A stretch of DNA of 64,000 bases from an uncultured Bacteroidota bacterium (GTDB taxonomy: Bacteria > CLD3 > SB21 > JBBIRG01). The notes beneath the pieces were generated by a model that worked only from the letters and a program-made list of their open reading frames with translations, was not told the origin of the DNA and ran no database searches. A program made the position numbers and the translations under genes. The stretch spans positions 10,942 through 74,941 of the forward strand of contig CAYPIY010000014.1 of the NCBI GenBank assembly GCA_964410965.1. Reading direction: 5' to 3'. Below are positions 5,176 through 64,000 of the stretch, piece by piece. The first letter of the stretch is position 1; each line of letters starts with the position of its first letter.

Positions 5176-5308
5176 GGAATCTTTCCTTTAAACACTCTTT
5201 GATTACTTACAGCTTATCACTTAAACTAATAAAATTAATTTGCATTTCAATATGATTTTAAATAGCTTTGCCGCGTCATTTTTATCACTACTTCCAAAGG
5301 AATTATAC

Positions 5309-25348: not shown

Positions 25349-25431
25349 TGAAAGGTTAATTTTTTGTCGGATAAGTTGAAGGGCATAAACTCATAAAGTT
25401 GATTATTGTTAATAATTTTAATAAGGAGATT

Positions 25432-28400: not shown

Positions 28401-29400
28401 TGGTTACTTAATCATTGCAAGTTCTGTTTCCGCCGATTCACTGGATTTTACCTGGACAGCTTCCGTTGATCCGGAAACACAACCGGTTACTTATCATGTT
28501 GTGTTTTCAGGCAATTTAGCGGGAACTGCCCATCCGATGATCTCCCCGGCAATTACGGATACAACCGTAAAAGTTCCTTATAATGTATTATACGAATATG
28601 TTGTTGATTCTTTGGGCGTAATAACCGGCGACACAACGGATGTATTCTGGCAAGTCATATCTTCCGATGGCGTTCATGAAGTGAACAGCGCAGAAACATG
28701 GTTATTGCGCGTTCTGTATGTCAATGTCGGACCTTCCGTATTTCATCTCTTGGAGCCTGCTGATAATACGATTGTGGCCGTCGACGGGACCTATACGGAT
28801 ACACTTACTTGTATCTGGTCAGCAGCAACCGATCCGGAAAGTTCCCCGGTTACCTATACTTTCAGGGCTTCTCTGGATATATCATTTGCAGACTGTCTGG
28901 TTCTTCCCTCTGCAAACAGCGGTGCCGATTCATCTGCTGACATTCTCTATTCTGTCATTGATCAATGGCTAGCCGGCCAGGGAATTGCCGACGGCGATAC
29001 CGTGAACATATACTGGAAAGTCGTCGCGACCGACGGCGTGAATGAAGTCAATAGCGCTGAAATATTTGTATTGACCGCAATTCGTCAGATTGTATGCGGA
29101 TCAGATGAGGGCGATCGTCCGCTTTCTTATGAATTGTATGCGAATTATCCGAACCCTTTCAATCCGAATACTACGATCAAGTACGATCTGAAAGAGAATG
29201 CGAAAGTGACTCTGAAGATCTTCAATTCGATCGGCCAGGAAGTAGGGATATTAGTGAACACACAGCAATCATCAGGCAATCATTCGGTTATCTGGGACGG
29301 AAAGAACAACCAAGGCCAGAGAGTCACGTCCGGCGTGTATTTTTACAGACTGCAGGCGGGCGATTTCGTGAAGACAAGGAAGATGGTGCTGCTGAAATAA
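25432..29400 (+). CDS. large T9SS-sorted protein: choice-of-anchor-J-like N-domain, parallel beta-helix repeats, two Fn3-like internal repeats, T9SS C-terminal domain
   Basis: The RBS AAGGAG at 25423 precedes ATG 25432. It has the signal peptide MKLLRTFIILVLFPLLLQG and the motif FEGFESTTFPPAGWT. Beta-helix style repeats are present (IHNCHIHNL, RIDNNRIHDL, ITAFNNMISDI, VKLYNNTVYL, YRNNIFVN). The C-terminus is NYPNPFNPNTTIKYDL...GVYFYRLQAGDFVKTRKMVLLK. Confidence 0.85.
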   Translation: MIMKNNMKLLRTFIILVLFPLLLQGIIPNRVISQKKNTFFYIENVISTQDGDIILPYLVSTTKGSKAVPLVSKTLSIESEKMFEGFESTTFPPAGWTSYSVCGPKVWNRSTSSPRSGAAAGHINWENPYGEDWLITPVINNIEASDSVIFFLRANLSNYSDSTTVFLSTTGNDTGDFRTVLGLYTGYPYNTPNYQKISIPLGAYSGQNVYIAIRHTNANGGGIFIDDFYVGGPDPNDIRALDFVYPANNGIIPPSTAFSPTAHFKNIGTETQNNVLVKYEITNNVPVVVYSDTTYIPAINTYQTLLVTFAEVTGGLTTGDYGIKIKVETPDMNPANDSLTGALKIKNSLMGIKTIGGLSPDYTTFNDAVDDLILKGVGTGGVTFHVREGNYGVDAGTEIDQKIIIPPIDNVSAGNPIIFQKDPAAHNPVNIVSDSLFAVALSGCDYVTFDSINIEQKTGGHNLGFGYYITNASETDGAWFNTIKNFSVRLTDSTSGNQPTGVLIVKSYSAVVSSGANSYNKILNFRIYGQWGIKVSGTSTTYPDIDNEIGTDGLETSLIEASAVTNYNAGIMIGYQENINIHDVEISAYYNGAASLYGIYAPLANVSATIHNCHIHNLVHKGATTGNARAITVFGSGDYRIDNNRIHDLYHYGTGTNYIVGLSVEGGTNITAFNNMISDIKMPGGTASGGSSCNIQGIRTSGGTNVKLYNNTVYLDALNMSASRNSGCLVITAGVTSSDYRNNIFVNLSQNGSGTAARQTAVHKTSTTYTNIAGTTDYNILYSGAGPFAGKRALFFDGTNTDSTIAQYQGHLTSREFNAVSGHVEFANTAAAPYDLHVYAGNTIPNNNAMALPGIVDNDYDGQLRDASVPDRGADEYTPSLPLSFNLSLPANLATNIPVNGNLIWEMSAFATAYDVYLDVVDPPVTIVSADQTDTTYTYSALAYSDTFYWKVIAKNPAGNTASNDAAYSFITEAATNDPPSASNLTEPADGYLIIASSVSADSLDFTWTASVDPETQPVTYHVVFSGNLAGTAHPMISPAITDTTVKVPYNVLYEYVVDSLGVITGDTTDVFWQVISSDGVHEVNSAETWLLRVLYVNVGPSVFHLLEPADNTIVAVDGTYTDTLTCIWSAATDPESSPVTYTFRASLDISFADCLVLPSANSGADSSADILYSVIDQWLAGQGIADGDTVNIYWKVVATDGVNEVNSAEIFVLTAIRQIVCGSDEGDRPLSYELYANYPNPFNPNTTIKYDLKENAKVTLKIFNSIGQEVGILVNTQQSSGNHSVIWDGKNNQGQRVTSGVYFYRLQAGDFVKTRKMVLLK

Positions 29401-45657: not shown

Positions 45658-46116
45658 ATGAATGTGAAAGCAGTATTGTTCCTTTTATTAACAGTCTTTT
45701 TGAGCTTCTGTGTCATACCGATATTCCTTTCCGCTCAGGAAGAGGATGAAACGGTCTCGGCGACTATTCTTTATGACGCATCCGGAAGCCGGATCGGAGA
45801 AATCGGGCAGGACGGCGTCGTCTATGATAAAGCCGGAAGCCGCATCGGCGAATTCGGATCCGACGGTACGGTATACGACGCCGCGGGAAGCCGCATCGGG
45901 GAAGTCACCAGCGAAGGGTATGTGTATGACGCCTCCGGAAGCCGTTTGGGCGAGATCGATACCGAAGGCGTCGTGTACGACAAGTCCGGCAGCCGGATCG
46001 GCCAGGTCACTTCAAAAACAGTGTATGACGTTTCCGGATCACGGATCGGGGAGGCGGACGGCAACGCAAGTACGGATCACATCGCCGCTTTTTTCTTTTT
46101 CTTTTTTGTAAAATAA
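45658..46116 (+). CDS. small secreted protein made of six 17-residue tandem repeats (G.VYD..GSRIGE...)
   Basis: It has the signal peptide VLFLLLTVFLSFCVIPIFLSAQ. The Tyr of the YD..GSRIGE unit recurs at residues 39, 56, 73, 90, 107 and 123. The C-terminal tail is AAFFFFFFVK. Confidence 0.65.
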   Translation: MNVKAVLFLLLTVFLSFCVIPIFLSAQEEDETVSATILYDASGSRIGEIGQDGVVYDKAGSRIGEFGSDGTVYDAAGSRIGEVTSEGYVYDASGSRLGEIDTEGVVYDKSGSRIGQVTSKTVYDVSGSRIGEADGNASTDHIAAFFFFFFVK

Positions 46117-48163: not shown

Positions 48164-48236
48164 TTTTCGATAACTACAAACCGGTCTGCCGTTCCGTCAG
48201 ACCGGTTTTTCTTTCCATACTATGTGTAAAGTCAAT

Positions 48237-49034
48237 ATGAAAAAAGTCAGATTCGGAGAATGGATTTCGGAGGGTTTTCAGTTGCTGAAAGCAGAATGGC
48301 AAACCTGGGTTCTGATCAGCCTGATATATTTCATTCCGGTCGGGATTATTTATGGGATTTCGCAGATCATCAGTTTCCAGTTCAGCCAGCATATGAATGT
48401 GAACGCACGATCGCTGGAGGATTTGATTCAGATCTTTTCGCAGAGCCTCGCCCAGTCGCTGATCCTGAGCCTGGTAACGGCGTTCGCGATGAATTTCGTT
48501 CAGGCGTTTCTCCTCGGAGGAATGTATAAGGCGGCGTTCAAGCAGATCCGCGGAGAATCCATAAGCGTCGGTGACCTTTTCAGCGGCACGGATTTGTTCG
48601 TGAAAATCCTCGTCGCTTCGGTGCTGCTGACCATCATTCAGTTTGTCACGGTGATGATTTGTTATATCCCGATGCTGGTCGCGCAGGGACTGCTGTTTTT
48701 CACCATACCGCTGATCGTACGGCAGAATCTTGAGCCGGTCGAGGCGCTGAAGTCCAGTTATCAGGAGACGAAGCAGGACTGGCTGATGTTCATCCTGTAC
48801 GCGTTTGTAGTCAATGTTCTTGCGTTTATCGGCGTGATCGCCTGCCTGATCGGAATTTTATTTACGTTCCCGCTGCTTGTGATCCTTTCGGCGGTGGCGT
48901 ACCGGGATTGTTTTGAGGCTGACACTCCCATGACGCGGGCCGAGGCCCTGTCAACCAAATTCTGTCATGCCTGCGGCCAGCCGCTGGATGTGAAAGCGAA
49001 TTTCTGCGGAAAATGCGGGGCAAGCCAGGTATGA
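48237..49034 (+). CDS. polytopic membrane protein with C-terminal zinc-ribbon, paralog 1
   Basis: FGEWISEGFQLLKAEWQTW, the shared core FLLGGMYKAAFKQIRGE and the C-terminal CHACGQPLDVKANFCGKCG are present. The start is taken at MKKVRFGEW. Confidence 0.65.
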   Translation: MKKVRFGEWISEGFQLLKAEWQTWVLISLIYFIPVGIIYGISQIISFQFSQHMNVNARSLEDLIQIFSQSLAQSLILSLVTAFAMNFVQAFLLGGMYKAAFKQIRGESISVGDLFSGTDLFVKILVASVLLTIIQFVTVMICYIPMLVAQGLLFFTIPLIVRQNLEPVEALKSSYQETKQDWLMFILYAFVVNVLAFIGVIACLIGILFTFPLLVILSAVAYRDCFEADTPMTRAEALSTKFCHACGQPLDVKANFCGKCGASQV

Positions 49035-49099: not shown

Positions 49100-49882
49100 A
49101 TGTCTGGTGAAAATATAGTAAAATTCGGCGACTGGATTTCCGGGGGCTGGAACCTGTTCAAACAAGAATGGAAAACCTGGTCGCTCATGGGAGCGATTTT
49201 TTTCCTGCCCGTTCTGATTATCATCATCGCAGCGGCAATCGGAATCCTTCTGCTGTCCGCGCGCGGAAAACCGGATGCCGCCTTCGTCACGGGCATGATC
49301 GCGGTCCTTTTTCTGATGATGGCGGGAATCCTCGTCTATGTCAGTTATGTGACAGGCGGGTTGTACCTTACTGCCTTTAAGCAGATCCGGGGCGAAAAAA
49401 TCGGGGTATCGGACATCTGGTCCGGCGGAGCGTTTACCCTGAAAATCCTCGGCGCCAGCATCATCATTACATTCTTAACGCTCATCGGCGCGATCATGTG
49501 TTACTTTCCGGCTTTCGTGGTCGGCGGATGGCTGTACTTTACTCTGCCGCTGATCGTGAAGAAAGGACTCGGGGTCTTTGACGCCATGGGCAGGAGTTTC
49601 GACCTGACGAAAAAAGGCTGGTTCATGTTCACGTTATTCGCCTTTGTGGTCGGCATGATATCGCAGATCGGCGTGTACGCGTGCTATGTGGGAATCGTTT
49701 TTACGCTTCCCCTGCTGTACACGATCTCCGCGGTGGCTTATACCGACTGCTTCGAGGGAGGATATCATCCGGAGGGCCAGGAAGTCCAGGGCGGTACGCC
49801 ATCCCGGCATTGTTCTTCATGCGGAAAGCCCATTCCGGCGGATGCCAATTTCTGCGGCCATTGCGGAAGCGGCCAGCGGTAA
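49100..49882 (+). CDS. polytopic membrane protein with C-terminal zinc-ribbon, paralog 2
   Basis: FGDWISGGWNLFKQEWKTW, YVTGGLYLTAFKQIRGE and the C-terminal CSSCGKPIPADANFCGHCG are present. It is collinear with the upstream paralog. Confidence 0.65.
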   Translation: MSGENIVKFGDWISGGWNLFKQEWKTWSLMGAIFFLPVLIIIIAAAIGILLLSARGKPDAAFVTGMIAVLFLMMAGILVYVSYVTGGLYLTAFKQIRGEKIGVSDIWSGGAFTLKILGASIIITFLTLIGAIMCYFPAFVVGGWLYFTLPLIVKKGLGVFDAMGRSFDLTKKGWFMFTLFAFVVGMISQIGVYACYVGIVFTLPLLYTISAVAYTDCFEGGYHPEGQEVQGGTPSRHCSSCGKPIPADANFCGHCGSGQR

Positions 49883-51583: not shown

Positions 51584-51603
51584 AAAAAAAAAAAAAAAAA
51601 AAA
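51584..51603. repeat. A20 homopolymer tract immediately upstream of the first leader element
   Basis: Twenty consecutive A residues, counted directly, end 2 nt before GTCGGTTCG at 51606. Confidence 0.95.
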
Positions 51604-51605
51604 CA

Positions 51606-51672
51606 GTCGGTTCGGGTAGTCCGCTGCGGCGGACGTACTTGTCCTGAGTGAATCGAAGGATCGAGAACCGAC
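51606..51672 (+). promoter_or_regulatory. conserved structured leader element, copy 1 (long form); the leader continues to ATG 51750
   Basis: The outer stem is GTCGGTTC/GAACCGAC. The inner hairpin is GTCCGC-TGCG-GCGGAC. The second hairpin is GTCCT-11 nt-AGGAT. An extra 77 nt tail with two small hairpins precedes the RBS AAGGAG. Confidence 0.6.
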
Positions 51673-51749
51673 AGCAAATAAAGCGCTTCCCTAAACAGTC
51701 CGACAAAAGCCGGGCTTGCTCAAAGCGACGAATATAAAGGAGACAGAAT

Positions 51750-54221
51750 ATGAAAAAAGCTACCCTGCTCGTCATCGCGGCGATGCTGTTCCTTCACACA
51801 CAGATCAGCGCGCAAAACGCCGAACGGTACATTTCGGACAATCTGGGACGGATCGTGGAAGTTGCCAATTCCGGCGGTACATTAACTACGCCCCATCTAC
51901 TTATCGGGTATGATACGACCGGCATTGTGTACCAGTCGAATTCCGTAAATACATACAAAATATTCGGATTATTCCCAGATGAAACCAGTCTGCAGAATTT
52001 AAACAGCTGGAATAAATTTGGATCCCCGTCGGGTGATGACAGTTACGAAATCCGTTTCGGTTCCGATTCCAGCCGCTACTGGATCAACACCAACTGGTAT
52101 GGTACAGGCGGTAATCTCGCGCCGAATCAGCTCCCGTTTTCGGTTTATCATGTCGGACCGAAATCATCGGCGGATACTTCGGTTACCGGTGGAATTAAAC
52201 TGTGCCTGAAAGTCACGGACCAGGATGCGGACGGCATTTTCACCGCCGGTGAGATGATCTATGTTTTCGCTGATCTGGCTTTGCCGTTAGACAGCACATA
52301 CGACAGCCTGAGTCAAAGAACCAGCAACCCGTTTGTCCAAAGCCGCAGCGTCATGACTTATCTCCGCTTCGGAGCCGCATCCGTGCCCTACTCACAAACG
52401 ACTTTTTCCGTTCCCGGTGACGGATTCATCCCGCCATACGGCACGGTGATCCGGTTTGTGGCCCAAACTGCTGATTCGATAGAACCCGTTATTCAGTTTC
52501 CTTATACAATCTCTGCTCCGCGCGCAGGAATTGTTTATCGGTTTCCGATTACCGCTTATTCATTTGAAGCGATCGATTATTCATTGGAAAATCAACCGGA
52601 AAATATGACTCTCAGTCATGACACTCTCCTTTGGACCGTTTCGGCAAATCAATTCGGACACTTATACCCTTTTATCCTCCGAGCGACGAATTCAGCCGGA
52701 CATAGTTATAAAACCGTTCAGGCTTTTGCGGGTTATCAAAACTCCACAAACTATGTGCAATTAGGCGAAAATCAAATTGAATACTGGACGTCCAATAACG
52801 GTTCGATCGCTTTCAATTTTCCGATCCAGGAACGTGGCCTTGGATGGATTAATGATCCGGCCGGTTTATTTTACGCAGCAGGGATGTATCTCGGGGGCCA
52901 GAAACAGGGAACAGCGGGGAATCCGGATACCATCAGCGTTTCGCAGGTTGAATTTCAGGGAGAACTGGATGCCGGCCGAATCTTGAATAACGGACCCTTC
53001 GGGAGTTTGCTGGTTGAGAATCCCGATACGTCAGCGGCCAGTGTATTGATTCTTCCGGACCATAGTAATGCATGGCCACCGGAAGCGCCGCATGATGAGC
53101 TGGGTAATCCGCTGAAATTATCCGTCCGGGATACCTGGACGGTGTTTAACGATGTGTGGGCGAAAAGCAGAACGGATGACCCGTTTTCTTTATCTCCCGG
53201 ATTTGGCATTGAATGTCAAAGACAGACATTTCAGTTTCCGGAATATCCGTTTGATCAGGCGGTATTGGTACGGTTGAGAATGATCAACAAATCCGACGCG
53301 GCGTATGATTCGTGTTTCTTCGGCCTGTGGGCTGACCCGGATGTGGGTTTGAATTCGGTAGATGATTTATGCATGGTGGATTCGACCCTGCCGTGTCTGA
53401 TTACCTACAGCGACCCGGCGGGCAGTGACCAAAGTACATCTGCGGCCGGAATTCTTGTTATACAAAGTCCTGTTACGGCAGGTAATGTTAACGATACCGC
53501 AACAGTGATTGAAATCGGAACCCAGGGGTTTGAACCAAAGAGAAAAACCGGAAAGAAATATGCCCTTCCTTCATCAGCGTACGTCTACATGGGCGCGCAA
53601 TGTGAACCCGATGGCTATACTGGAAAGCGTGACATATCCAGATACTGGTATTTAATGGGTTTGGATAATTGGGGAAGCTGGAAACCCAACGGACGTTTTG
53701 ATTTGACCAATTGTGTCGGAACATCTCCTGCCGATCTGCGTGTCATCATGGGTATCGGCCCATATACGTTCCTTGCCGGAGATACGCAGGAAGTCTGGTA
53801 TTCTCTGATGGGCGCTAAGGGCACAACCAAAGCCAATTCTGTGGATTCGATCCTGAGTCGCGCTTATCTGATGAAAGAAAAGTTTTACAGTGACATGAAC
53901 AGCGTAATAGTTGGAGTGAATGACCCGGTGAATCCCGTTCCGCAAAGCATGAAACTGCATCCGAATTATCCCAATCCGTTCAATCCATCCACGACGATAC
54001 GTTATCAGCTGGCAGAGAACAGTAAAGTGACGCTGAAGATCTACAACCTGCTTGGCCAGGAAGTCCGGACATTAGTCAATGCGCAAAAATCCTCCGGCAT
54101 GCATTCAGTTATCTGGGACGGGAAAAACCATCATGGCCAGAGAGTCACATCCGGCGTGTATTTTTACAGGCTGCAGGCGGGTGATTTTGTGAAGACGAGG
54201 AAGATGGTACTGGTGAAGTAA
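51750..54221 (+). CDS. T9SS-sorted paralog 1 (N-module type a, C-module type alpha), function unknown
   Basis: It has the signal peptide MKKATLLVIAAMLFLHTQISAQ, the EF-hand-like loop DQDADGIFTAGE and the T9SS C-terminus NYPNPFNPSTTIRYQL...GVYFYRLQAGDFVKTRKMVLVK. Confidence 0.85.
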   Translation: MKKATLLVIAAMLFLHTQISAQNAERYISDNLGRIVEVANSGGTLTTPHLLIGYDTTGIVYQSNSVNTYKIFGLFPDETSLQNLNSWNKFGSPSGDDSYEIRFGSDSSRYWINTNWYGTGGNLAPNQLPFSVYHVGPKSSADTSVTGGIKLCLKVTDQDADGIFTAGEMIYVFADLALPLDSTYDSLSQRTSNPFVQSRSVMTYLRFGAASVPYSQTTFSVPGDGFIPPYGTVIRFVAQTADSIEPVIQFPYTISAPRAGIVYRFPITAYSFEAIDYSLENQPENMTLSHDTLLWTVSANQFGHLYPFILRATNSAGHSYKTVQAFAGYQNSTNYVQLGENQIEYWTSNNGSIAFNFPIQERGLGWINDPAGLFYAAGMYLGGQKQGTAGNPDTISVSQVEFQGELDAGRILNNGPFGSLLVENPDTSAASVLILPDHSNAWPPEAPHDELGNPLKLSVRDTWTVFNDVWAKSRTDDPFSLSPGFGIECQRQTFQFPEYPFDQAVLVRLRMINKSDAAYDSCFFGLWADPDVGLNSVDDLCMVDSTLPCLITYSDPAGSDQSTSAAGILVIQSPVTAGNVNDTATVIEIGTQGFEPKRKTGKKYALPSSAYVYMGAQCEPDGYTGKRDISRYWYLMGLDNWGSWKPNGRFDLTNCVGTSPADLRVIMGIGPYTFLAGDTQEVWYSLMGAKGTTKANSVDSILSRAYLMKEKFYSDMNSVIVGVNDPVNPVPQSMKLHPNYPNPFNPSTTIRYQLAENSKVTLKIYNLLGQEVRTLVNAQKSSGMHSVIWDGKNHHGQRVTSGVYFYRLQAGDFVKTRKMVLVK

Positions 54222-54296
54222 TTTCTCGCAAAGACGCAGAGGCGCAAAGGGAAAAAAAACATATAAGAATATGAAGACAAGGAAGAAAAATAGATA

Positions 54297-54341
54297 GTCG
54301 GTTCGAGTAGGTCGCTTGAGGTGACCCTATCGAGAACCGAC
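54297..54341 (+). promoter_or_regulatory. conserved structured leader element, copy 2 (short form)
   Basis: It has the same outer stem GTCGGTTC/GAACCGAC. The inner hairpin is changed to GGTCGC-TTGAG-GTGACC, which still pairs. The second hairpin is absent. The RBS AAGGAG follows 6 nt after the stem. Confidence 0.6.
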
Positions 54342-54360
54342 AGAATTAAGGAGAAAGAAC

Positions 54361-56820
54361 ATGAAAAAAGTTACGGTACTCATCATCGCAGCGGCAATGA
54401 TCCTTCACACCCGGATCAGCGCGCAAACCACCGAAGGTTACTTATCCAACAACCTCGGCCGGATCGTGGAGGTGGCCAATTCCGGCGGCACATTAACTAC
54501 CCCCCATCTGCTGATCGGATACGACACCACCGGCATTGTGTATCAGTCAAATTCCCTGAATGCCTTCAGGATTTTCGCGAACTCTCCTTCCACAACCACT
54601 CTGCAGAGCCTGAACAGCCAGAACCGGTTCGGAGCGCCGGGAACCAATGACTGTTACGAGATCCGGTTCGGTTCCGATTCCAGCCGGTACTGGATCAACA
54701 CCAGTATTTTGGGTACTGGAGGAAATCTCGCGCCGAATCAGCTCCCGTTTTCGGTATATTACGTCGGGCCGAAACCATCGGCGGATACTTCGGTGACCGG
54801 AGGGATCAAATTATGCGTGAAAGTCACGGACCAGGACACGAACGGCATTTTCACCGCCGGTGAGCGGATTACGGTTTTCGCCGATCTGCAAGTACCCTTA
54901 GACAGCACATACGACAGCCTGAGTCACCGTGCCGCCAATCCATTTGTCACAAACCGCAGCGTCATCACGTATCTCCGCTTCGGTGCCGCTTCTGTGCCCT
55001 ACTCACAAACGACTTTTTCCGTTCCCGGTGACGGATTCATCCCGCCATCCGGCACAGTGATCCGGTTTGTGGCAAAAACGGGAGACGCCATAGCCCCGAT
55101 TGTCTATAACTTAACCGATACGTTCAGAACATCCGGCATCGGAATTTTTACATCCTCTTTTAATGTATATTCGTATGAAGTTCCTGTCTATACACTGACG
55201 GATGCGCCTGCGGGGATGACGGTATCGGACGGTGTGATAACCTGGAATGTCACAGAAAGCCAAATCGGACAGGTGTATAATGTTATCCTTCAGGCAAGCA
55301 ATGGTGCAGGGGTATCAACTCGAATGTTCCGGGCAAAGGGCAGCTGGGGAACCCAGGAAATCAAGACCGAAGGCGCAGGAAACCTGATCCGGATGTGGCA
55401 GAGAAATGACGGATCGATCGCATACCGTGCCAGTCAAAGCATTTACGGAATGGAATATCCGATCAATTCGGGTTACACACTGAATTATGCGGGAGGATTT
55501 TACTTCGGCGGAATAAAGTCCGGCAGCGGAAATCCCGATACCGTCAATGTCGCTCAGTGCGAATATCAATCCGAATTCCAGCCCGGACGCATTTTGAACT
55601 CGGGACCGTTCGGGACGCTGCAGGGACAGGATTATATGCAACACAACACATTATTCACCCTGCCCGGGAACGAGCTGACCTGGCCGCCGGACGCGCCGCG
55701 GAACACATTGAACGAACCGCTGAGACTTTCTCTGATTGACACGTGGACGGCATTCAACGATCTTTCTATCAGTAACGTATCCGATCCTTTCTCTTTATCG
55801 CCGGGTTTCGGGCTTGAAATCCAGCGCCAGACGTTTCAGTTCAGCCTGTATCCCTTCAACAATGCCGTGCTCGTCAGAATGCGGTGCATCAACAAGTCCG
55901 ACATGAATTATGACAGCTGTTACTTCGGATTGTGGAATGATCCGGACGTCGGTGGAAACGCCGGCGATGACCTCGCAACAGTCGATTCATCCCTTGCCCT
56001 TATAACCGTTTACAGCGACCCGGCCGGCAGTGACCCTCATCCGAGCGCTTTCGGCTGCGCGTTCCTTCAACTCCCCCTGAATACCGGGACCGCCGGAGAT
56101 ACGGCGGTTGTCATCGGCATCACCGAACAGGGTTTCAGCCGAATCACCAAACCCGGTTATAAAAGTTCAGGTCCTTCAGCAGCGATAGCCTATCAGGGTG
56201 GCATAGGAGATCCTGACGGACGAGGAATGGGCGACCGAAGCCGGTACTGGTATGAATCAGGATATGACCTTTTCGGCTATCCAAAACCATTGGGTCCATT
56301 TGACTTGACGACAGTTGGAAATGAACCTGGAGATAAACGTATGGTATTCGGAGCAGGCCCGTTTTCTTTCACGGCGGGAGACACGCAGGACGTCTGGTAT
56401 GCGATGATCGGCGGAATGGGAGTTACCAAAGCCGCCGCGGTCGATACGATACATCATTACGCGGAAATGATGCGCCGGATTTTTATGGAAAACATGAACG
56501 ATTATCTTGTCAGCATTCATGACCCTGTAAATCCGCTTCCACAGGGTGTCAGCCTGCATCCCAATTATCCGAACCCGTTTAATCCTTCGACTACGATCCG
56601 GTACGAGCTGAAACAGGCTTCGAAAGTGACGCTGAAGATCTACAACCTGCTCGGCCAGGAAGTCCGGACATTAGTCAATGCGCAAAAATCCTCCGGCATC
56701 CATTCGGTTATCTGGGACGGGAAGAACCATCATGGCCAGAGGGTCACGTCAGGAGTGTATTTCTATAGGCTGGAGGCGGGTGATTTTGTGAAGACAAGGA
56801 AGATGGTGCTGGTGAAATAA
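54361..56820 (+). CDS. T9SS-sorted paralog 2 (N-module type a, C-module type beta), function unknown
   Basis: It has the signal peptide MKKVTVLIIAAAMILHTRISAQ. The N-terminal 250 or so residues are close to paralog 1, and the C-half is close to paralog 4. It has a T9SS C-terminus. Confidence 0.85.
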   Translation: MKKVTVLIIAAAMILHTRISAQTTEGYLSNNLGRIVEVANSGGTLTTPHLLIGYDTTGIVYQSNSLNAFRIFANSPSTTTLQSLNSQNRFGAPGTNDCYEIRFGSDSSRYWINTSILGTGGNLAPNQLPFSVYYVGPKPSADTSVTGGIKLCVKVTDQDTNGIFTAGERITVFADLQVPLDSTYDSLSHRAANPFVTNRSVITYLRFGAASVPYSQTTFSVPGDGFIPPSGTVIRFVAKTGDAIAPIVYNLTDTFRTSGIGIFTSSFNVYSYEVPVYTLTDAPAGMTVSDGVITWNVTESQIGQVYNVILQASNGAGVSTRMFRAKGSWGTQEIKTEGAGNLIRMWQRNDGSIAYRASQSIYGMEYPINSGYTLNYAGGFYFGGIKSGSGNPDTVNVAQCEYQSEFQPGRILNSGPFGTLQGQDYMQHNTLFTLPGNELTWPPDAPRNTLNEPLRLSLIDTWTAFNDLSISNVSDPFSLSPGFGLEIQRQTFQFSLYPFNNAVLVRMRCINKSDMNYDSCYFGLWNDPDVGGNAGDDLATVDSSLALITVYSDPAGSDPHPSAFGCAFLQLPLNTGTAGDTAVVIGITEQGFSRITKPGYKSSGPSAAIAYQGGIGDPDGRGMGDRSRYWYESGYDLFGYPKPLGPFDLTTVGNEPGDKRMVFGAGPFSFTAGDTQDVWYAMIGGMGVTKAAAVDTIHHYAEMMRRIFMENMNDYLVSIHDPVNPLPQGVSLHPNYPNPFNPSTTIRYELKQASKVTLKIYNLLGQEVRTLVNAQKSSGIHSVIWDGKNHHGQRVTSGVYFYRLEAGDFVKTRKMVLVK

Positions 56821-56894
56821 CCTCTCGCCAGGGCGCAGAGGCGCAAAGGGAAAAAAACATATAAGAATATGAAGCCACGGAAGAAAAATAGATA

Positions 56895-56961
56895 GTCGGT
56901 TCGGGTAGTCCGCTGCGGCGGACGTACTTGTCCTGAGTGAATCGAAGGATCGAGAACCGAC
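56895..56961 (+). promoter_or_regulatory. conserved structured leader element, copy 3 (long form)
   Basis: It is nearly identical to copy 1, including the tail. The tail hairpin is AGCCCG...CGGGCT here and AGTCCG...CGGGCT in copy 1, which is a C-G to U-G change. Confidence 0.6.
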
Positions 56962-57039
56962 AGACAAATAAAGCGCTTCCCTATACAGCCCGACAAAAGC
57001 CGGGCTTGCTCGAAGCGACGAATACAAAGGAGACAGGAC

Positions 57040-59510
57040 ATGAAAAAAGCTACCCTGCTCGTCATCGCGGCGGTAATAATCCTTCACACACGGGTCAGCG
57101 CACAAAACACCGAAGGATACCTGTCCAACAACCTCGGACAGATTGTTGAGGTAGCGAATCCGGACGGAATCATGCCTCAGACTCGTATTCTGATCGGGTG
57201 GGACAGCACCGGATATCTCCGTCAAAGTAACAGCCAGAATACATATAAAATATTCGGCTACGAACCGAAAAACACATGGCTGAATAATGATCAGGGCGTA
57301 TATACGCTCAATATGGCCAATCATTTTGGTTCACCCGGAGGAAATGACGGTTATGAAATCAGATTTGGCTTTGACTCAAGCCGATACTGGATTATCGGGG
57401 GTACGCTCGCGCCGGATCAAGCACCATTTTCTGTTTACCATGTGGGACCCAAACATTCAACCGATACGTCCATTACGGGAGGAATAAAATTATGCATGGG
57501 TATCTGGGATGATGACAGCAACGGTGTCTATACACCGGGAGAAAGGATCCATTTTTATTCTGACCGGGCGTTGCCTTTGGACAGCACCTACGACAGCCTG
57601 AGCACCCGCCTGAACAATCCGTTCAACTATACCATGAGGGTAATTTCCGAACTTCGTTTCGGATCAGGGTCTGTTCCATACACTCAGTCCGGATTCAGAA
57701 TTCCGGAGGACGGGGTGATCCCTCCGGCCGGAACGGTCATCCGGTTCGTTGCGAAATCCGCCGACTCAATCCCGCCGGTCGTTCAGCTTTATTCTTTGCA
57801 GGCTCCCAATGCGGGTGTTCAGTACCGTTTTCCGGTACCGGTATATTCCTTTGAAAGCCCGACGTTATTACTGGAAGATGCTCCTCCGGCTATGATACTG
57901 AGCAATGACACAATTCTTTGGACCATTACTGCCTCACAATTTGGCCAATCCTATCCGTTCCGGATCAGAGCGACGAACTCTGCCGGGTACAGTTATCAAA
58001 GTTGTACCGCTAAGGCAGGTTACTTGTCCGGTTCGGACCTCGTGAATCTCAGAAACAACCAGATTGATTACTGGACATCGAATACCGGTTCTTTCGCTTA
58101 CAATTTTTCAGAAACCATGCCGGGATTTCGCTGGGTAAATGATCCGGCCATACTTTACTTCGCTACCGGCCTGTATTTAGGCGGGAAAAAGCAGGGAACC
58201 GGAGGGAATCCGGATACCATTAGTGTAACTCACACTGAATTTACGCCAAAGTATGAATTAGACGCAGGACGCATTCTCAATAACGGCCCGTTTGGAAGTC
58301 TAACGGTAGAGAATCCTGACACATCAGCGGCAAAAGTGTTTGTGCTGCCGGAGCATAGCGGAATATGGCCTCTCGAAGCGCCGCATGATGAACTGGGTAA
58401 TCCGTTAAAATTATCAGCAAGAGATACATGGACGGTGTTTAATGATGTTTGGGCCAGAACGAGAAATACAGATCAGTTTTCTTTATCTCCTGGATTCGGT
58501 ATAGAGTGTCAGCGACAAACGTTTCAGTTTTTGGAGTATCCGTTTGATCAATCGGTATTGGTGCGGCTGCGGATGATCAATAAATCTGACGCGACTTATG
58601 ATTCGTGTTTCTTCGGACTGTGGGCTGATCCGGATGTGGGTTTGGAATCATCAGATGACTTATCTATTGTAGATTCAACTTTACCGTGTCTGATGACCTA
58701 CAGCAACCCAACGGGTAGTGACCAAAGTACTTCTGCCACAGGAATGCTTGTCATACAGAGTCCTGTTACGGCAGGCAATGTAAACGATACCGTGACTGTG
58801 ATTGAAATCGGCTCTCAGGGGTTTGAACAAAAAAGAAAAGCCGGGAAGATATACGCCATTCCTGCTTCAGCGGTATCATATCGGGGAGGTGTTGGTTCTC
58901 CGACTGGGGCAAATGGTCGTGGCGATTTGACCAGATATTGGTATTTAATTGGGCATGATTATCTGGGCGGATGGAAACCGAACGGCAGATTTGATGTTAC
59001 GGTCAGCGGAACGACACCCGGTGATCAGAGGCAGATCATGGGCGTGGGTCCGTACACATTTCTTCCCAACGATACCCAGGAAGTCTGGTACGCTCTCATG
59101 GGCGCAAAAGGCACAACCAAGGGCAATGCCGTCGATTCGATCCTGAACCACGCCTATCTGATGAAAGAAATATTTACAGCGACATGAACAGCATGATCGT
59201 AGGGGTGAATGATCCGGTGAATCCCGTTCCGCAAAAAGTGATCCTGCATCCTAATTACCCCAATCCGTTCAATCCATCCACGACGATCCGGTACGAGCTG
59301 AAACAGGCTTCGAAAGTGACGCTGAAGATTTACAACCTGCTCGGCCAGGAAGTCCGGACATTAGTCAATGCGCAAAAGTCATCCGGCGTGCATTCGGTTA
59401 TCTGGGACGGAAAGAACAGCCATGGCCAGAAAGTCACGTCGGGAGTGTATTTCTACAGGCTGCAGGCGGGCGATTTTGTGAAGACGAGGAAGATGGTGCT
59501 GGTGAAATAA
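57040..59510 (+). pseudogene. T9SS-sorted paralog 3 (N-module type b, C-module type alpha) split by a 1 nt deletion into a passenger ORF (57040..59187) and a sorting-domain ORF (59184..59510)
   Basis: Aligned to paralog 1, GAAAAGTTTTACAGTGACATGAAC becomes GAAATATTTACAGCGACATGAAC (TTTT to TTT near 59173). The frame shifts and stops at 59187. The +1 frame continues as MNSMIVGVNDPVNPVPQ... through an intact T9SS domain. Confidence 0.7.
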
Positions 59511-59582
59511 CCTCTCGCCAGGACGCGAAGGCGCAAAGGAAAAACCATTAAGAATATGAAGACAAGGAAGAAAAGTAAAAAA

Positions 59583-59650
59583 GTCGGTTCGAGCAGGTCG
59601 CATGAGGCGGACGTACTTGTCCTGAGTGAATCGAAGGATCGTGAACCGAT
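59583..59650 (+). promoter_or_regulatory. conserved structured leader element, copy 4
   Basis: The outer stem ends in GAACCGAT, so the closing pair becomes G-U. The inner hairpin is chimeric, with a left arm like copy 2 (GGTCGC) and a right arm like copy 1 (GCGGAC). The second hairpin is present. The RBS AAGGAG follows. Confidence 0.55.
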
Positions 59651-59669
59651 AGGATTAAGGAGACAGAAT

Positions 59670-62600
59670 ATGAAAAAAGCTACCCTGCTCGTCATCGCGG
59701 CGATGCTGTTCCTTCACACACGGGTCAGCGCACAAACATCTGAGGGGTATATCCAGAACAACCTCGGGCGCATCGTTGAAGTGGCGACGCCGAACGGTGT
59801 TCTGTCCAGGCCGCATGTTCTGATCGGATGGGACACGAACGGATTCGTGAAACAGGCGAATTCACAGAGCGCCTATAAACTATTCGGAAATACGCCCAGC
59901 AACACCGGATTAAACAATACCGGATTCAACAGTGGCGGCAAATTCGGAGCGCCGTCCGGTCATGATTGCCTCGAGTTCCGGTTCGGCGATTCCAGCCGCT
60001 ACTGGATCGGCAATGACCTCGCCCCGGACAAGGTTCCTTTCAGCGTGTACAACATCGGACCCAGATCATCCGCCTATCCGGTCATAACCGGGGGAGTGAA
60101 ACTGTGCCTTCAGGCGTATGACGATAACGGCAACGGCGTTTTCGATCCGGGAGAAAGAATCAATGTTTACGGTGATCTTGCGATGCCCTTTGACAGCGCT
60201 TATGCAGACCTGGGCCAGTCCGGCACGTTTCCGTTTTCGATCAGCCAGCGCTATATCGTGAGCCTTCGAATCGGGAAGTCATCGGTCCCCTACACCCGGA
60301 CAACATTTACGGACTCCTCGGACGGGATCCTGCCCGGGTCCGGAACCGTGATCCGGTTACTGGCGCAGACGTCGGATACCTCGGCGCCGTTTTTTACGGT
60401 GCGTGAACATATCCTGCAGGATACCGGAACGGTGACGTATCCGGATTTTGTCAGTTATTATTCCTTCGAAAAGCCTCGATTTGAACTGTTCCATGGGCCC
60501 TCGAGAATGACCGTGGACTCGGCGGGGGTTCTCCGCTGGACGGTGTATTCGCACCAGCGGGGCAACGCGTATCCGGTATTGCTGAGATTATCCAATGCGT
60601 ACGGGGATTATGAAAGGCCTTTCACGGCGGCCGTGGACGCCAAAGCGCCTCCCGATACCGGTATCGTGGAATATGAAACGACAGCCGAGGGCAACCTCAT
60701 CCGTTTCTGGCAGAGAAATGACGGGTCGATAGGATATCGGGCCAGTCAAAGCATGTACGGAATGGAATATCCCGCAGGAACACATTATTCTCTTGTTTAC
60801 GCCGGAGGAGTCATGCTGGGTGGAAAGAAAACAGGGTTGAATGGAAATCCAGACACGGTAAATGTTGCACATTGTGAATTTCAATCAGAAATGCAACCCG
60901 GACGAATTGTAAACAGCGGACCATTCGGAAGTTTGCAGTCCGAGGATTATCACAACAACATGACATTTTATACATTACCGGAGAACAGCAGTAATTGGCC
61001 GATTGAAGCGCCTCATAATGGATGGGGACTACCGTTACAGCTTTCGGGCCGGGACACGTGGACGGTTTTTAATGATCTTTCCATTGACAAAGTCATTGAT
61101 GAATATTCTTTATCCCCCGGATTTGGATTAGAAGTACAAAGGCAGACTTTTCAGTTCACTCACTATCCATTTAACAATGCCATGATTGTAAGATATTCAT
61201 TTATCAATAAATCAGACAAAAACTATGATTCCTGTTACGTGAGCTTCTGGGATGATGCGGATGTCGGCGCTAATTCAGGTGATGATTTGGGACAACTTGA
61301 TTCAGCGTTGTCATTGAAAATCACATACAGTAATCCTGCGGGAATCGATATTCATCATAGCGCAGTTGGAGTCCAGATTCTGCAGGGTCCAACGGCAGAT
61401 GGAACCACCGGCGATACAGCTTCAATTGTAACTTTGAGCCGGGAAGGGTTTAAACAACTAATACTTTCAGAAAAAAAGGTACAGTTAGCCACATCGGGGT
61501 ATTTTTATTTTAAATCGATGGAAGAACCGGACGGACGGGGTATGGGTGATATATCCCGGTATAATTTTTTAAGCGGAAAAGACCTGTGGGGAAACCCAAA
61601 ACCTGGCGGCCCATTTTATCCCGGCCTGGCCTCCACATCCCGCAGTGACCAACGAAGCCATATTTCCTCCGGCCCCTTCAACTTCGCTGCCGGCGATACG
61701 CAGGAAATCTGGATGACATACATCGGCGGGATGGGCGTGGATAATGCCTCCGCGGTCGATACCGTACGTGACTATGCGAGAAGAATACTCGACGATTTCA
61801 CGAACAACCGGATCTACTCCGGGGATAATCTTCCTCTGGATATCACTCTCTATGGGCTCAGCACACAGGCCGTCAACCGGATACGGTTCATCGCGCATGT
61901 CAATAAGCCGGTCAGTTCACTGATCGTCAGGGCCGGGAATGATACGCTGATCGTTCAGCCTTTAAAAGAAGGCTACTCCGCCGATTACGACATTACAAAA
62001 ACCGGTACCGCAGAGTTGATCGTGACAGGCAGGGATCTGGGCGGAAAACAGGATACCGTCCGAAGAAATTATCAGATATCAGCGATGAACAAACCTCTGC
62101 AGTCAGGTCCGTACCGGTTCTTGGGACAAGGTGAAGGATATCTATTGGTGTCTCAGATTGAACCGATGGTCGTTCCGTTGGGATGGATCCGGTTGGGAGA
62201 GCCGATGGAAGTATTGAGAACGACGGCCTCGGATGTCAGCGCCGAATACACAATGACTGCAAGAGACATGGATAAGATCAAATCGAAATATCCTGAATTG
62301 AATGAAGAGCATATCGGAATATATTACTGGAACGGGACGAAGTGGGAGGAGACAGGAAGCCGGATTCAGGGAAATACAGTCAAAGGGATCTTAAAAGGAT
62401 CGAGGATCGCGGTATTCTACAATCCTGATATCAATAATGCGCCGGAGAGATTCGCGCTGGAGCCGAATTATCCCAATCCGTTCAATCCATCCACGACGAT
62501 ACGTTATCAGCTGGCGGAGAACAGTAAAGTGACGCTGAAGATCTACAACCTGCTTGGCCAGGAAGTCCGGACATTAGTCAATGCGCAAAAGTCATCCGGC

Positions 62601-62723
62601 ATGCATTCCGTTGTCTGGGAAGGAAAGAACAGCCAGGGCCAGAGAGTCACGTCAGGAGTGTATTTCTACAGGCTGGAAGCGGGTGATTTTGTGAAGACGA
62701 GGAAGATGGTGCTTGTTAAGTAG
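59670..62723 (+). CDS. T9SS-sorted paralog 4 (N-module type c, C-module type beta, extra 215 or so aa insert before the sorting domain), function unknown
   Basis: The start is taken at MKKATLLVIAAMLFLHTRVSAQ (ATG 59670, RBS AAGGAG at 59657). The 59556 start in the ORF track would read through the leader element. It has a T9SS C-terminus. Confidence 0.85.
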   Translation: MKKATLLVIAAMLFLHTRVSAQTSEGYIQNNLGRIVEVATPNGVLSRPHVLIGWDTNGFVKQANSQSAYKLFGNTPSNTGLNNTGFNSGGKFGAPSGHDCLEFRFGDSSRYWIGNDLAPDKVPFSVYNIGPRSSAYPVITGGVKLCLQAYDDNGNGVFDPGERINVYGDLAMPFDSAYADLGQSGTFPFSISQRYIVSLRIGKSSVPYTRTTFTDSSDGILPGSGTVIRLLAQTSDTSAPFFTVREHILQDTGTVTYPDFVSYYSFEKPRFELFHGPSRMTVDSAGVLRWTVYSHQRGNAYPVLLRLSNAYGDYERPFTAAVDAKAPPDTGIVEYETTAEGNLIRFWQRNDGSIGYRASQSMYGMEYPAGTHYSLVYAGGVMLGGKKTGLNGNPDTVNVAHCEFQSEMQPGRIVNSGPFGSLQSEDYHNNMTFYTLPENSSNWPIEAPHNGWGLPLQLSGRDTWTVFNDLSIDKVIDEYSLSPGFGLEVQRQTFQFTHYPFNNAMIVRYSFINKSDKNYDSCYVSFWDDADVGANSGDDLGQLDSALSLKITYSNPAGIDIHHSAVGVQILQGPTADGTTGDTASIVTLSREGFKQLILSEKKVQLATSGYFYFKSMEEPDGRGMGDISRYNFLSGKDLWGNPKPGGPFYPGLASTSRSDQRSHISSGPFNFAAGDTQEIWMTYIGGMGVDNASAVDTVRDYARRILDDFTNNRIYSGDNLPLDITLYGLSTQAVNRIRFIAHVNKPVSSLIVRAGNDTLIVQPLKEGYSADYDITKTGTAELIVTGRDLGGKQDTVRRNYQISAMNKPLQSGPYRFLGQGEGYLLVSQIEPMVVPLGWIRLGEPMEVLRTTASDVSAEYTMTARDMDKIKSKYPELNEEHIGIYYWNGTKWEETGSRIQGNTVKGILKGSRIAVFYNPDINNAPERFALEPNYPNPFNPSTTIRYQLAENSKVTLKIYNLLGQEVRTLVNAQKSSGMHSVVWEGKNSQGQRVTSGVYFYRLEAGDFVKTRKMVLVK

Positions 62724-62766
62724 AAAGTTGAAAGTATGAAAGTTGAAAGTAAAATACAAAAACCAA

Positions 62767-62834
62767 GTCGGTTCGAGCAGGTCGCATGAGGCGGACGTAC
62801 TTGTCCTGAGTGAATCGAAGGATCGAGAACCGAC
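62767..62834 (+). promoter_or_regulatory. conserved structured leader element, copy 5
   Basis: It matches copy 4 but has a fully Watson-Crick outer stem (GTCGGTTC/GAACCGAC). Confidence 0.55.
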
Positions 62835-62853
62835 AGGATTAAGGAGACAGAAC

Positions 62854-64000
62854 ATGAAAAAAGGTACGATGCTCATCATTGCGGCGATGCTGATCCTTCA
62901 CACACAGATCAGCGCACAAACATCTGAGGGGTATATCCAGAACAACCTCGGGCGCATCGTTGAAGTGGCGACGCCGAACGGTGTTCTGTCCAGGCCGCAT
63001 GTTCTGATCGGATGGGACACGAACGGATTCGTGAAACAGGCGAATTCACAGAGCGCCTATAAACTATTCGGAAATACGCCCAGCAACACCGGATTAAACA
63101 ATACCGGATTCAACAGTGGCGGCAAATTCGGAGCGCCGTCCGGTCATGATTGCCTCGAGTTCCGGTTCGGCGATTCCAGCCGCTACTGGATCGGCAATGA
63201 CCTCGCCCCGGACAAGGTTCCTTTCAGCGTGTACAACATCGGACCCAGATCATCCGCCTATCCGGTCATAACCGGGGGAGTGAAACTGTGCCTTCAGGCG
63301 TATGACGATAACGGCAACGGCGTTTTCGATCCGGGAGAAAGAATCAATGTTTACGGTGATCTTGCGATGCCCTTTGACAGCGCTTATGCAGACCTGGGCC
63401 AGTCCGGCACGTTTCCGTTTTCGATCAGCCAGCGCTATATCGTGAGCCTTCGAATCGGGAAGTCATCGGTCCCCTACACCCGGACAACATTTACGGACTC
63501 CTCGGACGGGATCCTGCCCGGGTCCGGAACCGTGATCCGGTTACTGGCGCAGACGTCGGATACCTCGGCGCCGTTTTTTACGGTGCGTGAACATATCCTG
63601 CAGGATACCGGAACGGTGACGTATCCGGATTTTGTCAGTTATTATTCCTTCGAAAAGCCTCGATTTGAACTGTTCCATGGGCCCTCGAGAATGACCGTGG
63701 ACTCGGCGGGGGTTCTCCGCTGGACGGTGTATTCGCACCAGCGGGGCAACGCGTATCCGGTATTGCTGAGATTATCCAATGCGTACGGGGATTATGAAAG
63801 GCCTTTCACGGCGGCCGTGGCCGCCAAAGCGCCTCCCGATACCGGTATCGTGGAATATGAAACGACAGCCGATGGCAACCTCATCCGTTTCTGGCAGAGA
63901 AATGACGGATCGATCGGATACCGGGCCAGTCAAAGCATGTTCGGAATGGAATATCCGATCGGTTCAAATTATTCTATTATTTACGCCGGAGGATTTCAAT
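62854..64000 (+). CDS. T9SS-family paralog 5, partial (runs off the window end); N-module type c
   Basis: ATG 62854 follows the RBS AAGGAG, with signal peptide MKKGTMLIIAAMLILHTQISAQ. Positions 62909..63820 are identical to 59725..60636 in paralog 4, after which the sequences diverge. Confidence 0.8.
   Translation, partial: MKKGTMLIIAAMLILHTQISAQTSEGYIQNNLGRIVEVATPNGVLSRPHVLIGWDTNGFVKQANSQSAYKLFGNTPSNTGLNNTGFNSGGKFGAPSGHDCLEFRFGDSSRYWIGNDLAPDKVPFSVYNIGPRSSAYPVITGGVKLCLQAYDDNGNGVFDPGERINVYGDLAMPFDSAYADLGQSGTFPFSISQRYIVSLRIGKSSVPYTRTTFTDSSDGILPGSGTVIRLLAQTSDTSAPFFTVREHILQDTGTVTYPDFVSYYSFEKPRFELFHGPSRMTVDSAGVLRWTVYSHQRGNAYPVLLRLSNAYGDYERPFTAAVAAKAPPDTGIVEYETTADGNLIRFWQRNDGSIGYRASQSMFGMEYPIGSNYSIIYAGGFQ

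Follow-up and report, generated by a model that had tools for sequence, protein, structure and literature searches.

A tandem array of mosaic paralogs encoding putative type IX secretion cargo in an uncultured Bacteroidota bacterium

Interlocus gene conversion among surface-protein paralogs is known from babA/babB of Helicobacter and tpr of Treponema, and the vlp genes of Mycoplasma hyorhinis, which encode lipoproteins with repetitive tails, each carry a poly-A tract between -35 and -10 through which switching has been demonstrated. In yeast, chimeric FLO adhesin genes arise through ectopic recombination between paralogs (PMC3512402). The adhesin modules of RgpA, Kgp and HagA of Porphyromonas gingivalis occur in differing combinations, for which domain rearrangement, gene conversion and allelic exchange have been held responsible (PMC5266723). 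Here we describe an array of at least five paralogous genes that encode putative, probably surface-attached cargo of the type IX secretion system (T9SS), located at the end of a 64,000-nucleotide (nt) stretch, referred to below as the window, of contig CAYPIY010000014.1 from an uncultured Bacteroidota bacterium (assembly GCA_964410965.1). We consider it likely, with a probability of roughly 75%, that the array is a tandem T9SS cargo family which evolves by birth-and-death and interlocus gene conversion and whose products probably serve in binding or adhesion.

Of the systems mentioned, the gingipain/HagA family is the closest described case. Like that family, the array seems to combine T9SS cargo, a conserved C-terminal sorting domain and combinatorial modules. 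However, the gingipain/HagA genes are dispersed whereas the array is strictly tandem, and their modules are cleaved-adhesin and DUF2436 domains on a cysteine protease, none of which occurs in the array proteins (no matches to PF07675, cleaved-adhesin, or to DUF2436 in the five copies). Moreover, P. gingivalis is a host-associated pathogen, whereas the present organism is an uncultured relative of the Ignavibacteria; the nearest named relatives of the PurL protein of the window are from Ignavibacterium, Ignavibacteriaceae and Kryptonium, at 66–67% identity. With the FLO-type families the array has in common that surface-protein paralogs apparently swap segments by ectopic homologous recombination, leaving homogenised ends and diverged interiors. 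It differs from them in the protein families and the export route, in exchange points that lie at predicted domain borders, and in a homogenised 3' end that encodes a secretion signal, which is also found in a non-homologous cargo gene. The vlp genes resemble the array in that they are tandem surface-protein paralogs which are highly conserved in their 5' regions and signal peptides and have poly-A ahead of the gene, but here the long tract stands at the first copy only, and the products are multi-domain T9SS cargo.

The five genes, copies 1 to 5, follow each other head-to-tail on the same strand at 51750–64000, as seen from the listing of open reading frames (ORFs) and their translations (Table 1). 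The spacers measure 139, 219, 159 and 130 nt from copy 1 to copy 5, and the repeat unit, about 2.6–3.2 kb long, is made up of trailer, structured leader, ribosome-binding site and gene. The source contig has a length of 75.8 kb. A preliminary description, made from the sequence alone, had reported five same-strand tandem genes with short spacers, and this is what we find, with the additions that copy 3 is frameshifted and copy 5 is cut by the end of the window. The encoded domains are, in order, a Sec signal peptide, a beta-rich N domain of about 225 amino acids (aa), an immunoglobulin (Ig)-like domain, a C module of about 385 aa and the sorting domain; copy 4 alone has an additional module of about 200 aa, and the same insert is present in the homolog P0012. 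Aligned as proteins, the five copies are homologous from end to end; what had been called 'modules' are forms of the same domains that have diverged.

The relationships between the copies change along the genes. The N module is 79% identical at the amino-acid level between copies 1 and 2 and 100% identical between copies 4 and 5, while that of copy 3 is 62–63% identical to either copy 1 or copy 2, in agreement with the N-module types first proposed. The C half said to be common to copies 1 and 3 was likewise recovered (75% aa identity). The claim of another C half common to copies 2 and 4 held in part: these two are the nearest copies to each other in the window, but they are 56% identical overall and reach 70–75% nucleotide identity only over the first ~60 codons, which indicates a distant affinity. 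Over its ~50 visible codons the C module of copy 5 is 82% identical to that of copy 4 and 78% to that of copy 2 at the amino-acid level, and its N and Ig-like domains are those of copy 4. The Ig-like domain is 28–55% identical (aa) between most copy pairs. A sliding-window comparison of the nucleotide sequences gave the same picture, with copies 1 and 2 being ~80% identical in alignment columns 1–240 and ~45% beyond, copies 1 and 3 ~60% identical in the N part and 80–85% in columns 440–600, and copy 2 being 70–83% identical to copies 4 and 5 in columns 341–400. Inside the sorting domain, copy 1 pairs with copy 4 (96% nucleotide identity) and copy 2 with copy 3 (95%).

To quantify this mosaicism, quartet-informative sites were counted for copies 1 to 4. 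The numbers of sites joining copy 1 with copy 2, copy 3 and copy 4 were 47, 10 and 12, respectively, in the N domain, 32, 153 and 34 in the Ig and C modules, and 2, 0 and 14 in the sorting-domain core (contingency test, chi2 = 159, p = 1e-25). MaxChi placed breakpoints in copy 1 at ~52467, the border between the N and Ig-like domains, and at ~53960, where the sorting domain starts, in copy 3 at 59283, within the sorting domain, and in copy 5 at 63891; none of 300 permutations reached any of these four, and one weaker comparison for copy 2 was reached by 5 of 300. Congruence of the N and C trees had been set beforehand as the outcome that would speak against reassortment. The module trees were found to be incongruent, also when homologs of other genomes were included. 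These results show that different parts of the genes have different histories. In addition, copies 4 and 5 contain an exactly identical tract (Table 1), which is flanked by 8 differences in the 56 nt upstream and by divergence that climbs again from 60637; from this pattern we take it to be the product of recent gene conversion.

Proteins of other genomes show discordant modules as well. Against copy 4, P0009 has 85% identity in the C module, which falls to 65% for the N domain and 47% for the Ig-like domain; P0004 is 81% identical to copy 1 in the N domain, and 61% and 56% identical to copy 2 in the Ig-like domain and C module, respectively; and P0001 groups with copies 1 and 3 in the Ig and C modules. 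Since the modules are thus discordant between genomes, module exchange is long-running in the clade, and some chimeric types are old. The preliminary description had seen in the array the shuffled cassettes of a variable protein family. The mosaicism is indeed significant, but what is exchanged are diverged versions of the same domains, and the shuffling is evolutionary. It is probably old in large part, because the number of synonymous substitutions per site (dS) was 0.4–1.4 in most exchanged tracts and because the mosaic pattern is partly common to other genomes; active or programmed variation goes beyond the present sequence evidence.

With regard to selection, the ratio omega of nonsynonymous (dN) to synonymous substitutions was 0.07–0.4 in the N, Ig, C and sorting-domain segments (Nei-Gojobori), the values for the 20-codon signal peptides being noisy. 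For the N module of copies 1 and 2 we obtained a dN of 0.13, a dS of 0.60 and an omega of 0.22. Purifying selection had been proposed from a comparison of 51830–51950 with 54440–54560, where the changes were described as mostly synonymous; of the codon differences in this stretch, 16 are silent and 3 alter the amino acid, and third positions account for 18 of the 21 nucleotide changes. The C module gave a dN of 0.16–0.26 and a dS of 1.2–1.4 between copies 1 and 3, and most other pairs were saturated at synonymous sites.

The ends of the genes behave differently from the interiors. The dS of the sorting domain is just 0.37–0.67 between copies, the non-coding leaders are 88–97% identical among all copies and the trailers 79–90%, and the signal peptides, rightly described as near-identical, are 83–95% identical at the nucleotide level. 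Because the sorting domains have a low dS and the leaders and trailers are alike while most gene bodies are saturated, the ends appear to evolve in concert while the interiors diverge. The window contains two further T9SS cargo genes, an S8-peptidase gene (5240–8212) and a SusE-like gene (Table 1). In the SusE-like gene, the final 126 nt of the sorting-domain sequence (29275–29400, + strand) are 83–90% identical to the sorting domains of the array, so that its 3' end is as near to the array copies as these are to one another, whereas the sorting domain of the S8-peptidase gene, which served as control, is merely 56–59% identical. This suggests that homogenisation of sorting domains extends beyond the array, to non-homologous cargo genes 22–34 kb apart.

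Table 1. Positions of the array genes, their parts, spacers and associated features in the window.
Feature	Position	Strand	Description
SusE-like T9SS cargo gene	25399-29400	+	1333 aa, unrelated to the array
Poly-A tract (A20)	51584-51603	+	2 nt upstream of first leader stem
Copy 1 leader	51604-51749	+	stem-loop element 51604-51676 (start ~51604-51606), extra 73-nt segment, AAGGAG ribosome-binding site
Copy 1	51750-54221	+	823 aa
Copy 1, signal peptide	51750-51812	+	
Copy 1, N domain	51813-52478	+	
Copy 1, Ig-like domain	~52488-52730	+	
Copy 1, C module	52731-53888	+	beta-supersandwich
Copy 1, T9SS sorting domain	53955-54218	+	
Spacer 1	54222-54360	+	conserved trailer, then short leader (stem element 54295-54346, without third hairpin) and ribosome-binding site
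Copy 2	54361-56820	+	819 aa; N domain of copy 1 type, Ig and C modules of copy 4/5 type
Spacer 2	56821-57039	+	trailer and long leader (stem element 56893-56965)
Copy 3	57040-59510	+	frameshifted; Ig and C modules of copy 1 type
Spacer 3	59511-59669	+	trailer and leader (stem element 59581-59654)
Copy 4	59670-62723	+	1017 aa
Copy 4, extra module	~61803-62440	+	~200 aa between C module and sorting domain
Spacer 4	62724-62853	+	sigma-70-like TTGAAA-16-TAAAAT site 62728-62755, then leader (stem element 62765-62838)
Copy 5	62854-64000	+	382 aa visible, window end cuts gene
Exact tract of copies 4 and 5	59725-60636 = 62909-63820	+	912 nt, from signal-peptide cleavage site to end of Ig-like domain

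Copy 3 is interrupted by a frameshift. Its ORF stops at 59187 after 715 aa, where a TTTT run at ~59175 lacks one T (copy 1 reads GAAAAGTTTTACAG and copy 3 reads GAAATATTTACAG); the sorting domain is intact but out of frame, on to 59510, and restoring the T gives a protein of 823 aa. Programmed frameshifting was considered for this site and rejected, as there is no slippery heptamer but a plain 1-nt deletion. Two independent short-read (Logan) assemblies match the window over 15,143 nt and 14,035 nt, respectively, free of mismatches and gaps, and because of this base identity the frameshift is more likely real than a sequencing error. Frameshifted copies also recur elsewhere: in another metagenome-assembled genome (MAG), which has at least two tandem copies on one contig (L002) and at least three on another (L003), both contigs ending inside a further copy, a homolog at L003 ~1690–1790 is split by a 1-nt deletion outside any homopolymer.

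Each of the five genes comes with an AAGGAG ribosome-binding site, an ATG, a signal peptide and a leader of its own, and no convincing intrinsic terminators were found between the array genes. As judged from five closely related copies of one genome, the leader element present ahead of all of them consists of an invariant 8-bp outer stem (GUCGGUUC/GAACCGAC) around one or two hairpins. The extra 73-nt leader segment, with a further hairpin, occurs only in copies 1 and 3, whose leaders are 95% identical. The leader element had no Rfam match at gathering or permissive thresholds, and the motif GTCGGTTC...GAACCGAC was not found upstream of homologs in the related loci L001–L010, for which reason it appears to be specific to the array of this genome. 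A short upstream ATG (ATG AAG ACA/CCA AGG AAG AAA; MK(T/P)RKK) lies ~25 nt before the leader stem in three spacers (54271–54297, 56869–56895 and 59556–59580). This reading frame comprises 8 codons in spacers 1 and 2. In spacer 3 it runs on into copy 4 without a change of frame, so that the ORF listed for copy 4 starts inside the leader at 59556 and has a misleading length of 1055 aa, the true start being 59670. The A20 tract ahead of the first leader is by far the longest homopolymer of the window, the runner-up having 11 nt. At this position A18 is read in L013, a short-read contig that was assembled independently from the same organism and is otherwise identical; the difference could be slippage heterogeneity or a homopolymer error.

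The predicted proteins carry the signals expected of T9SS cargo. The signal peptides of all five copies, read from the sequence by eye, consist of MKK, a hydrophobic core and (I/V)SA-Q, with the Sec signal peptide probably being cleaved between SA and Q. A mature N-terminal glutamine fits the 'Q-rule' for substrates of Bacteroidetes signal peptidase I (PMC5837995). Signal peptides of the Q-rule type are thus seen here in a relative of the Ignavibacteria. The sorting domain could be tested in copies 1, 2 and 4, where it is in frame; it is out of frame in copy 3 and beyond the window in copy 5. The identification as T9SS sorting domain and cargo that had been made by eye was borne out by TIGR04183 (T9SS type A; 46.8 and 45.6 bits, cut-off 23) and by PF18962 (32–34 bits in copies 1, 2 and 4, cut-off 27). 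Proteins with type A sorting domains cross the outer membrane by the type IX system and are released or attached to the surface. By analogy, the array proteins would pass the outer membrane and afterwards be set free or become covalently bound to the cell surface.

The passenger region had been described as lacking any enzymatic or named domain. This stands as far as the databases are concerned, since neither Pfam nor NCBIfam contains a matching domain (the sorting domain was the sole hit, and no glycoside hydrolase (GH) family was found in the array proteins), and a sequence-profile search of the PDB returned only a titin Ig domain at E = 0.3. Structure models, on the other hand, resolve an Ig-like domain and a beta-supersandwich. 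The models were built with AlphaFold2 from family alignments and compared by Foldseek. The model of the C module (residues 328–713 of copy 1) is all-beta with one terminal helix, and was predicted with a mean local confidence (pLDDT) of 94 and a predicted template-modelling (TM) score, pTM, of 0.93. Among PDB structures it is most like the N-terminal beta-supersandwich domains of GH94 cellobiose and cellodextrin phosphorylases, a GH15-like dextran dextrinase, cyclic glucan synthase, and GH116 and GH63 glucosidases (E = 1e-7 to 1e-4, probability 1.0, TM ~0.4, sequence identity ~10%). In these GH94, GH15-like, GH116 and GH63 enzymes the domain that resembles the C module is accompanied by a catalytic (alpha/alpha)6 barrel, which is absent from the array proteins; here, the C module is adjoined directly by the sorting domain. 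The N and Ig-like domains were modelled together with a pLDDT of 86, and residues ~247–327 form an Ig-like domain that matches 4nzj with a root-mean-square deviation (rmsd) of 1.8 Å over 88 residues. The first ~225 residues had no confident structural relative in the PDB or BFVD, as the hits of this model were limited to the Ig-like part.

The full architecture is very rare. It was found in ~17 proteins among 5.8 billion, in three loci among 185,579 species genomes, all of them MAGs labelled 'uncultured Bacteroidota', and in three loci of the JGI metagenome collection. An exhaustive hidden Markov model search with the profile of the N domain, an orphan with about 10 clusters, gave 15 representatives with E <= 1e-3, 9 of them with E <= 1e-30, of 1.84 billion. 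A seven-fasciclin protein (P0247) was rejected as a relative of the N domain, its weak hit being noise summed over repeats in seven short stretches. The N domain and Ig-like domain also occur as a unit fused to M28 aminopeptidases with a sorting domain (P0014–17, P0242). The C module belongs to a wider superfamily with 83 hits, consisting of unannotated T9SS proteins whose named sources are Ignavibacteriales, Marinimicrobia, Latescibacteria, Calditrichaeota and Bacteroidota. It is found alone with a signal peptide and a sorting domain (P0011, P0013, P0044) and together with cohesin and dockerin domains (L006, L007). A distant homolog of 808 aa with no detectable sorting domain (P0097) is encoded just after a gene for a TonB-dependent-receptor-like barrel, and a PorV homolog lies downstream of it with two small ORFs between. 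This context (L014, 7380–14548) could mean that the C-module superfamily is functionally linked to outer-membrane transport.

Because the Ig and supersandwich folds are combined with the lack of a catalytic domain, and because relatives bear cohesins and dockerins, we judge from the models that the proteins probably bind ligands or mediate adhesion on the surface of the cell, perhaps with glycans as partners. The diversity of the paralogs would then widen or alter the binding specificity or change the exposed epitopes. The array itself most likely formed by tandem duplication of a unit composed of trailer, leader and gene, followed by birth-and-death turnover, to which the frameshifted copies here and in L003 bear witness. 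Interlocus gene conversion of the RecA type or unequal crossing-over, carried out by general homologous recombination, is probably anchored in the homogenised ends (leader, signal peptide, sorting domain and trailer, at 83–97% nucleotide identity), with interior junctions being kept only at domain borders, where the chimeras still fold. The outcome is varied combinations of N, Ig and C modules, with the gene bodies under purifying selection. Several points weigh against parts of this interpretation. The conservation of leaders and sorting domains could partly reflect functional constraint instead of conversion, and P0001 and P0004 from other genomes also have sorting domains that are 86–92% identical. 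The fold likeness of the C module is moderate (TM ~0.4, rmsd ~10 Å), so that glycan binding is only a lead. There is no gene for T9SS machinery (porK/L/M/N, sov/sprA, porU or porV) in the 64-kb window, and expression, surface location and binding are predicted features. Furthermore, a Logan contig that covers the upstream side in the same organism reaches no more than 30 nt into the first leader; the array thus lacks an independent assembly, and the exact 912-nt repeat could be an assembly artefact.

The last point can be extended to the suspicion that the mosaic, or at least the identity of copies 4 and 5 together with the frameshift of copy 3, stems from paralogs or strains that were joined into a chimera or collapsed into one consensus. 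It is in keeping with this that Logan assemblies of the same organism break at the entry of the array, that look-ups of the products of copies 1 to 4 in the contig index all came back empty, and that an exact repeat of 912 nt is hard for short reads. Nevertheless, we regard such an artefact as highly improbable. The window is base-identical to two independent assemblies over 15.1 kb, the older mosaic tracts are 75–85% identical and comprise hundreds of informative sites, which a collapse cannot make, the modules are discordant also between proteins of other genomes, and arrays recur in another MAG. The contig break at the leader fits a genuine repeat, whereas the order of the copies and the 912-nt tract rest on one assembly. 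A different objection concerns function: the C module may be an enzyme, representing a new glycan-active or other hydrolytic family on a supersandwich scaffold, and the array a set of isozymes that differ in substrate specificity instead of binding proteins. Invariant or nearly invariant residues of the module, as judged across a superfamily with 14% mean column identity, are indeed rich in acidic and aromatic side chains (E161, D202, D204, D141, D212, D217, D351, E354, W115, W136 and W200), aldose 1-epimerase is a supersandwich protein that is an enzyme, and in P0014–17 the N module is joined to a true M28 peptidase. We nonetheless find this unlikely, as every confident structure match concerns an accessory, non-catalytic domain of GH94, GH15, GH116 and GH63 proteins without the barrel being present, no sequence match was obtained in Pfam, NCBIfam or the PDB, and the W-x-D-P-D-V-G...DD motif of the C module resembles a calcium-binding loop.

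The preference for old, general recombination over a dedicated variation system follows from similar considerations. In a contingency system akin to antigenic variation, the length of the A20 tract would switch expression of the array, and frequent conversion would make variants, for example for escape from phages or grazers. The tract is the longest homopolymer, lies 2 nt from the leader of copy 1 and reads A18 in an independent assembly; sequencing error may, however, account for assemblies that disagree by two bases in such a run. The exact 912-nt tract joining copies 4 and 5 looks very recent and the Ig-like domain is highly variable in most copies (28–55%), but the exchanged tracts are mostly old, with a dS of 0.4–1.4, and the mosaic types recur in other genomes. 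Frameshifted copies occur both here and in L003; that of copy 3, however, lies in a T4 run, which is too short for typical slippage switching. There are no silent cassettes either: instead of a single expression locus with promoterless or truncated donors, there are full-length copies, all equipped separately with ribosome-binding site, start codon, signal peptide and leader. The preliminary description had seen no recombinase or reverse transcriptase in the window, and neither these nor an integrase were found among the window ORFs scanned against Pfam; the Pfam annotation of the overlapping Logan contig L011 likewise showed no recombinase or reverse transcriptase. A diversity-generating retroelement was dropped from consideration, there being no reverse transcriptase and no template repeat, as was an invertible promoter upstream of copy 1, where we found only weak AT-rich inverted repeats and none of the invertible-promoter type. 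The array thus lacks the defining traits of cassette-type antigenic variation, of shufflons and of diversity-generating retroelements. Taken together, a contingency system seems to us quite unlikely. The same holds, as a rather speculative extension, for a phase- and sequence-variable surface-coat locus in an environmental, non-pathogenic bacterium, in which a slippage-prone A-tract gates transcription of a polycistron punctuated by leaders and ongoing conversion, including that of the sorting domains of unrelated cargo, keeps producing new N/Ig/C combinations; if true, it would be a T9SS counterpart of mycoplasmal and neisserial antigenic variation under phage or predator pressure.

A Pfam scan of the window ORFs showed that the neighbours of the array are housekeeping genes. 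Upstream lie two adjacent paralogous membrane proteins with C-terminal zinc-ribbon motifs (48222–49034 and 49100–49882), the first of which contains the end of L011, and, at 45658–46116, a small secreted protein composed of repeats of the YD(A/K)SGSRIGE type, which matches the Pfam 'beta-flower' families (PF21785).

A tandem cargo family that evolves by birth-and-death and gene conversion is a clean example of the well-known diversification of surface proteins and involves no new mechanism. Two uncharacterised domains have been defined, an N domain that is restricted to the clade and a supersandwich module, the latter being a reasonable target for structural and glycan-binding work. More generally, gene conversion at the level of domains can here be quantified in type IX cargo of an organism other than the oral pathogens from which it has been described, and the secretion signal itself would act as a common recombination anchor, even between non-homologous cargo genes.

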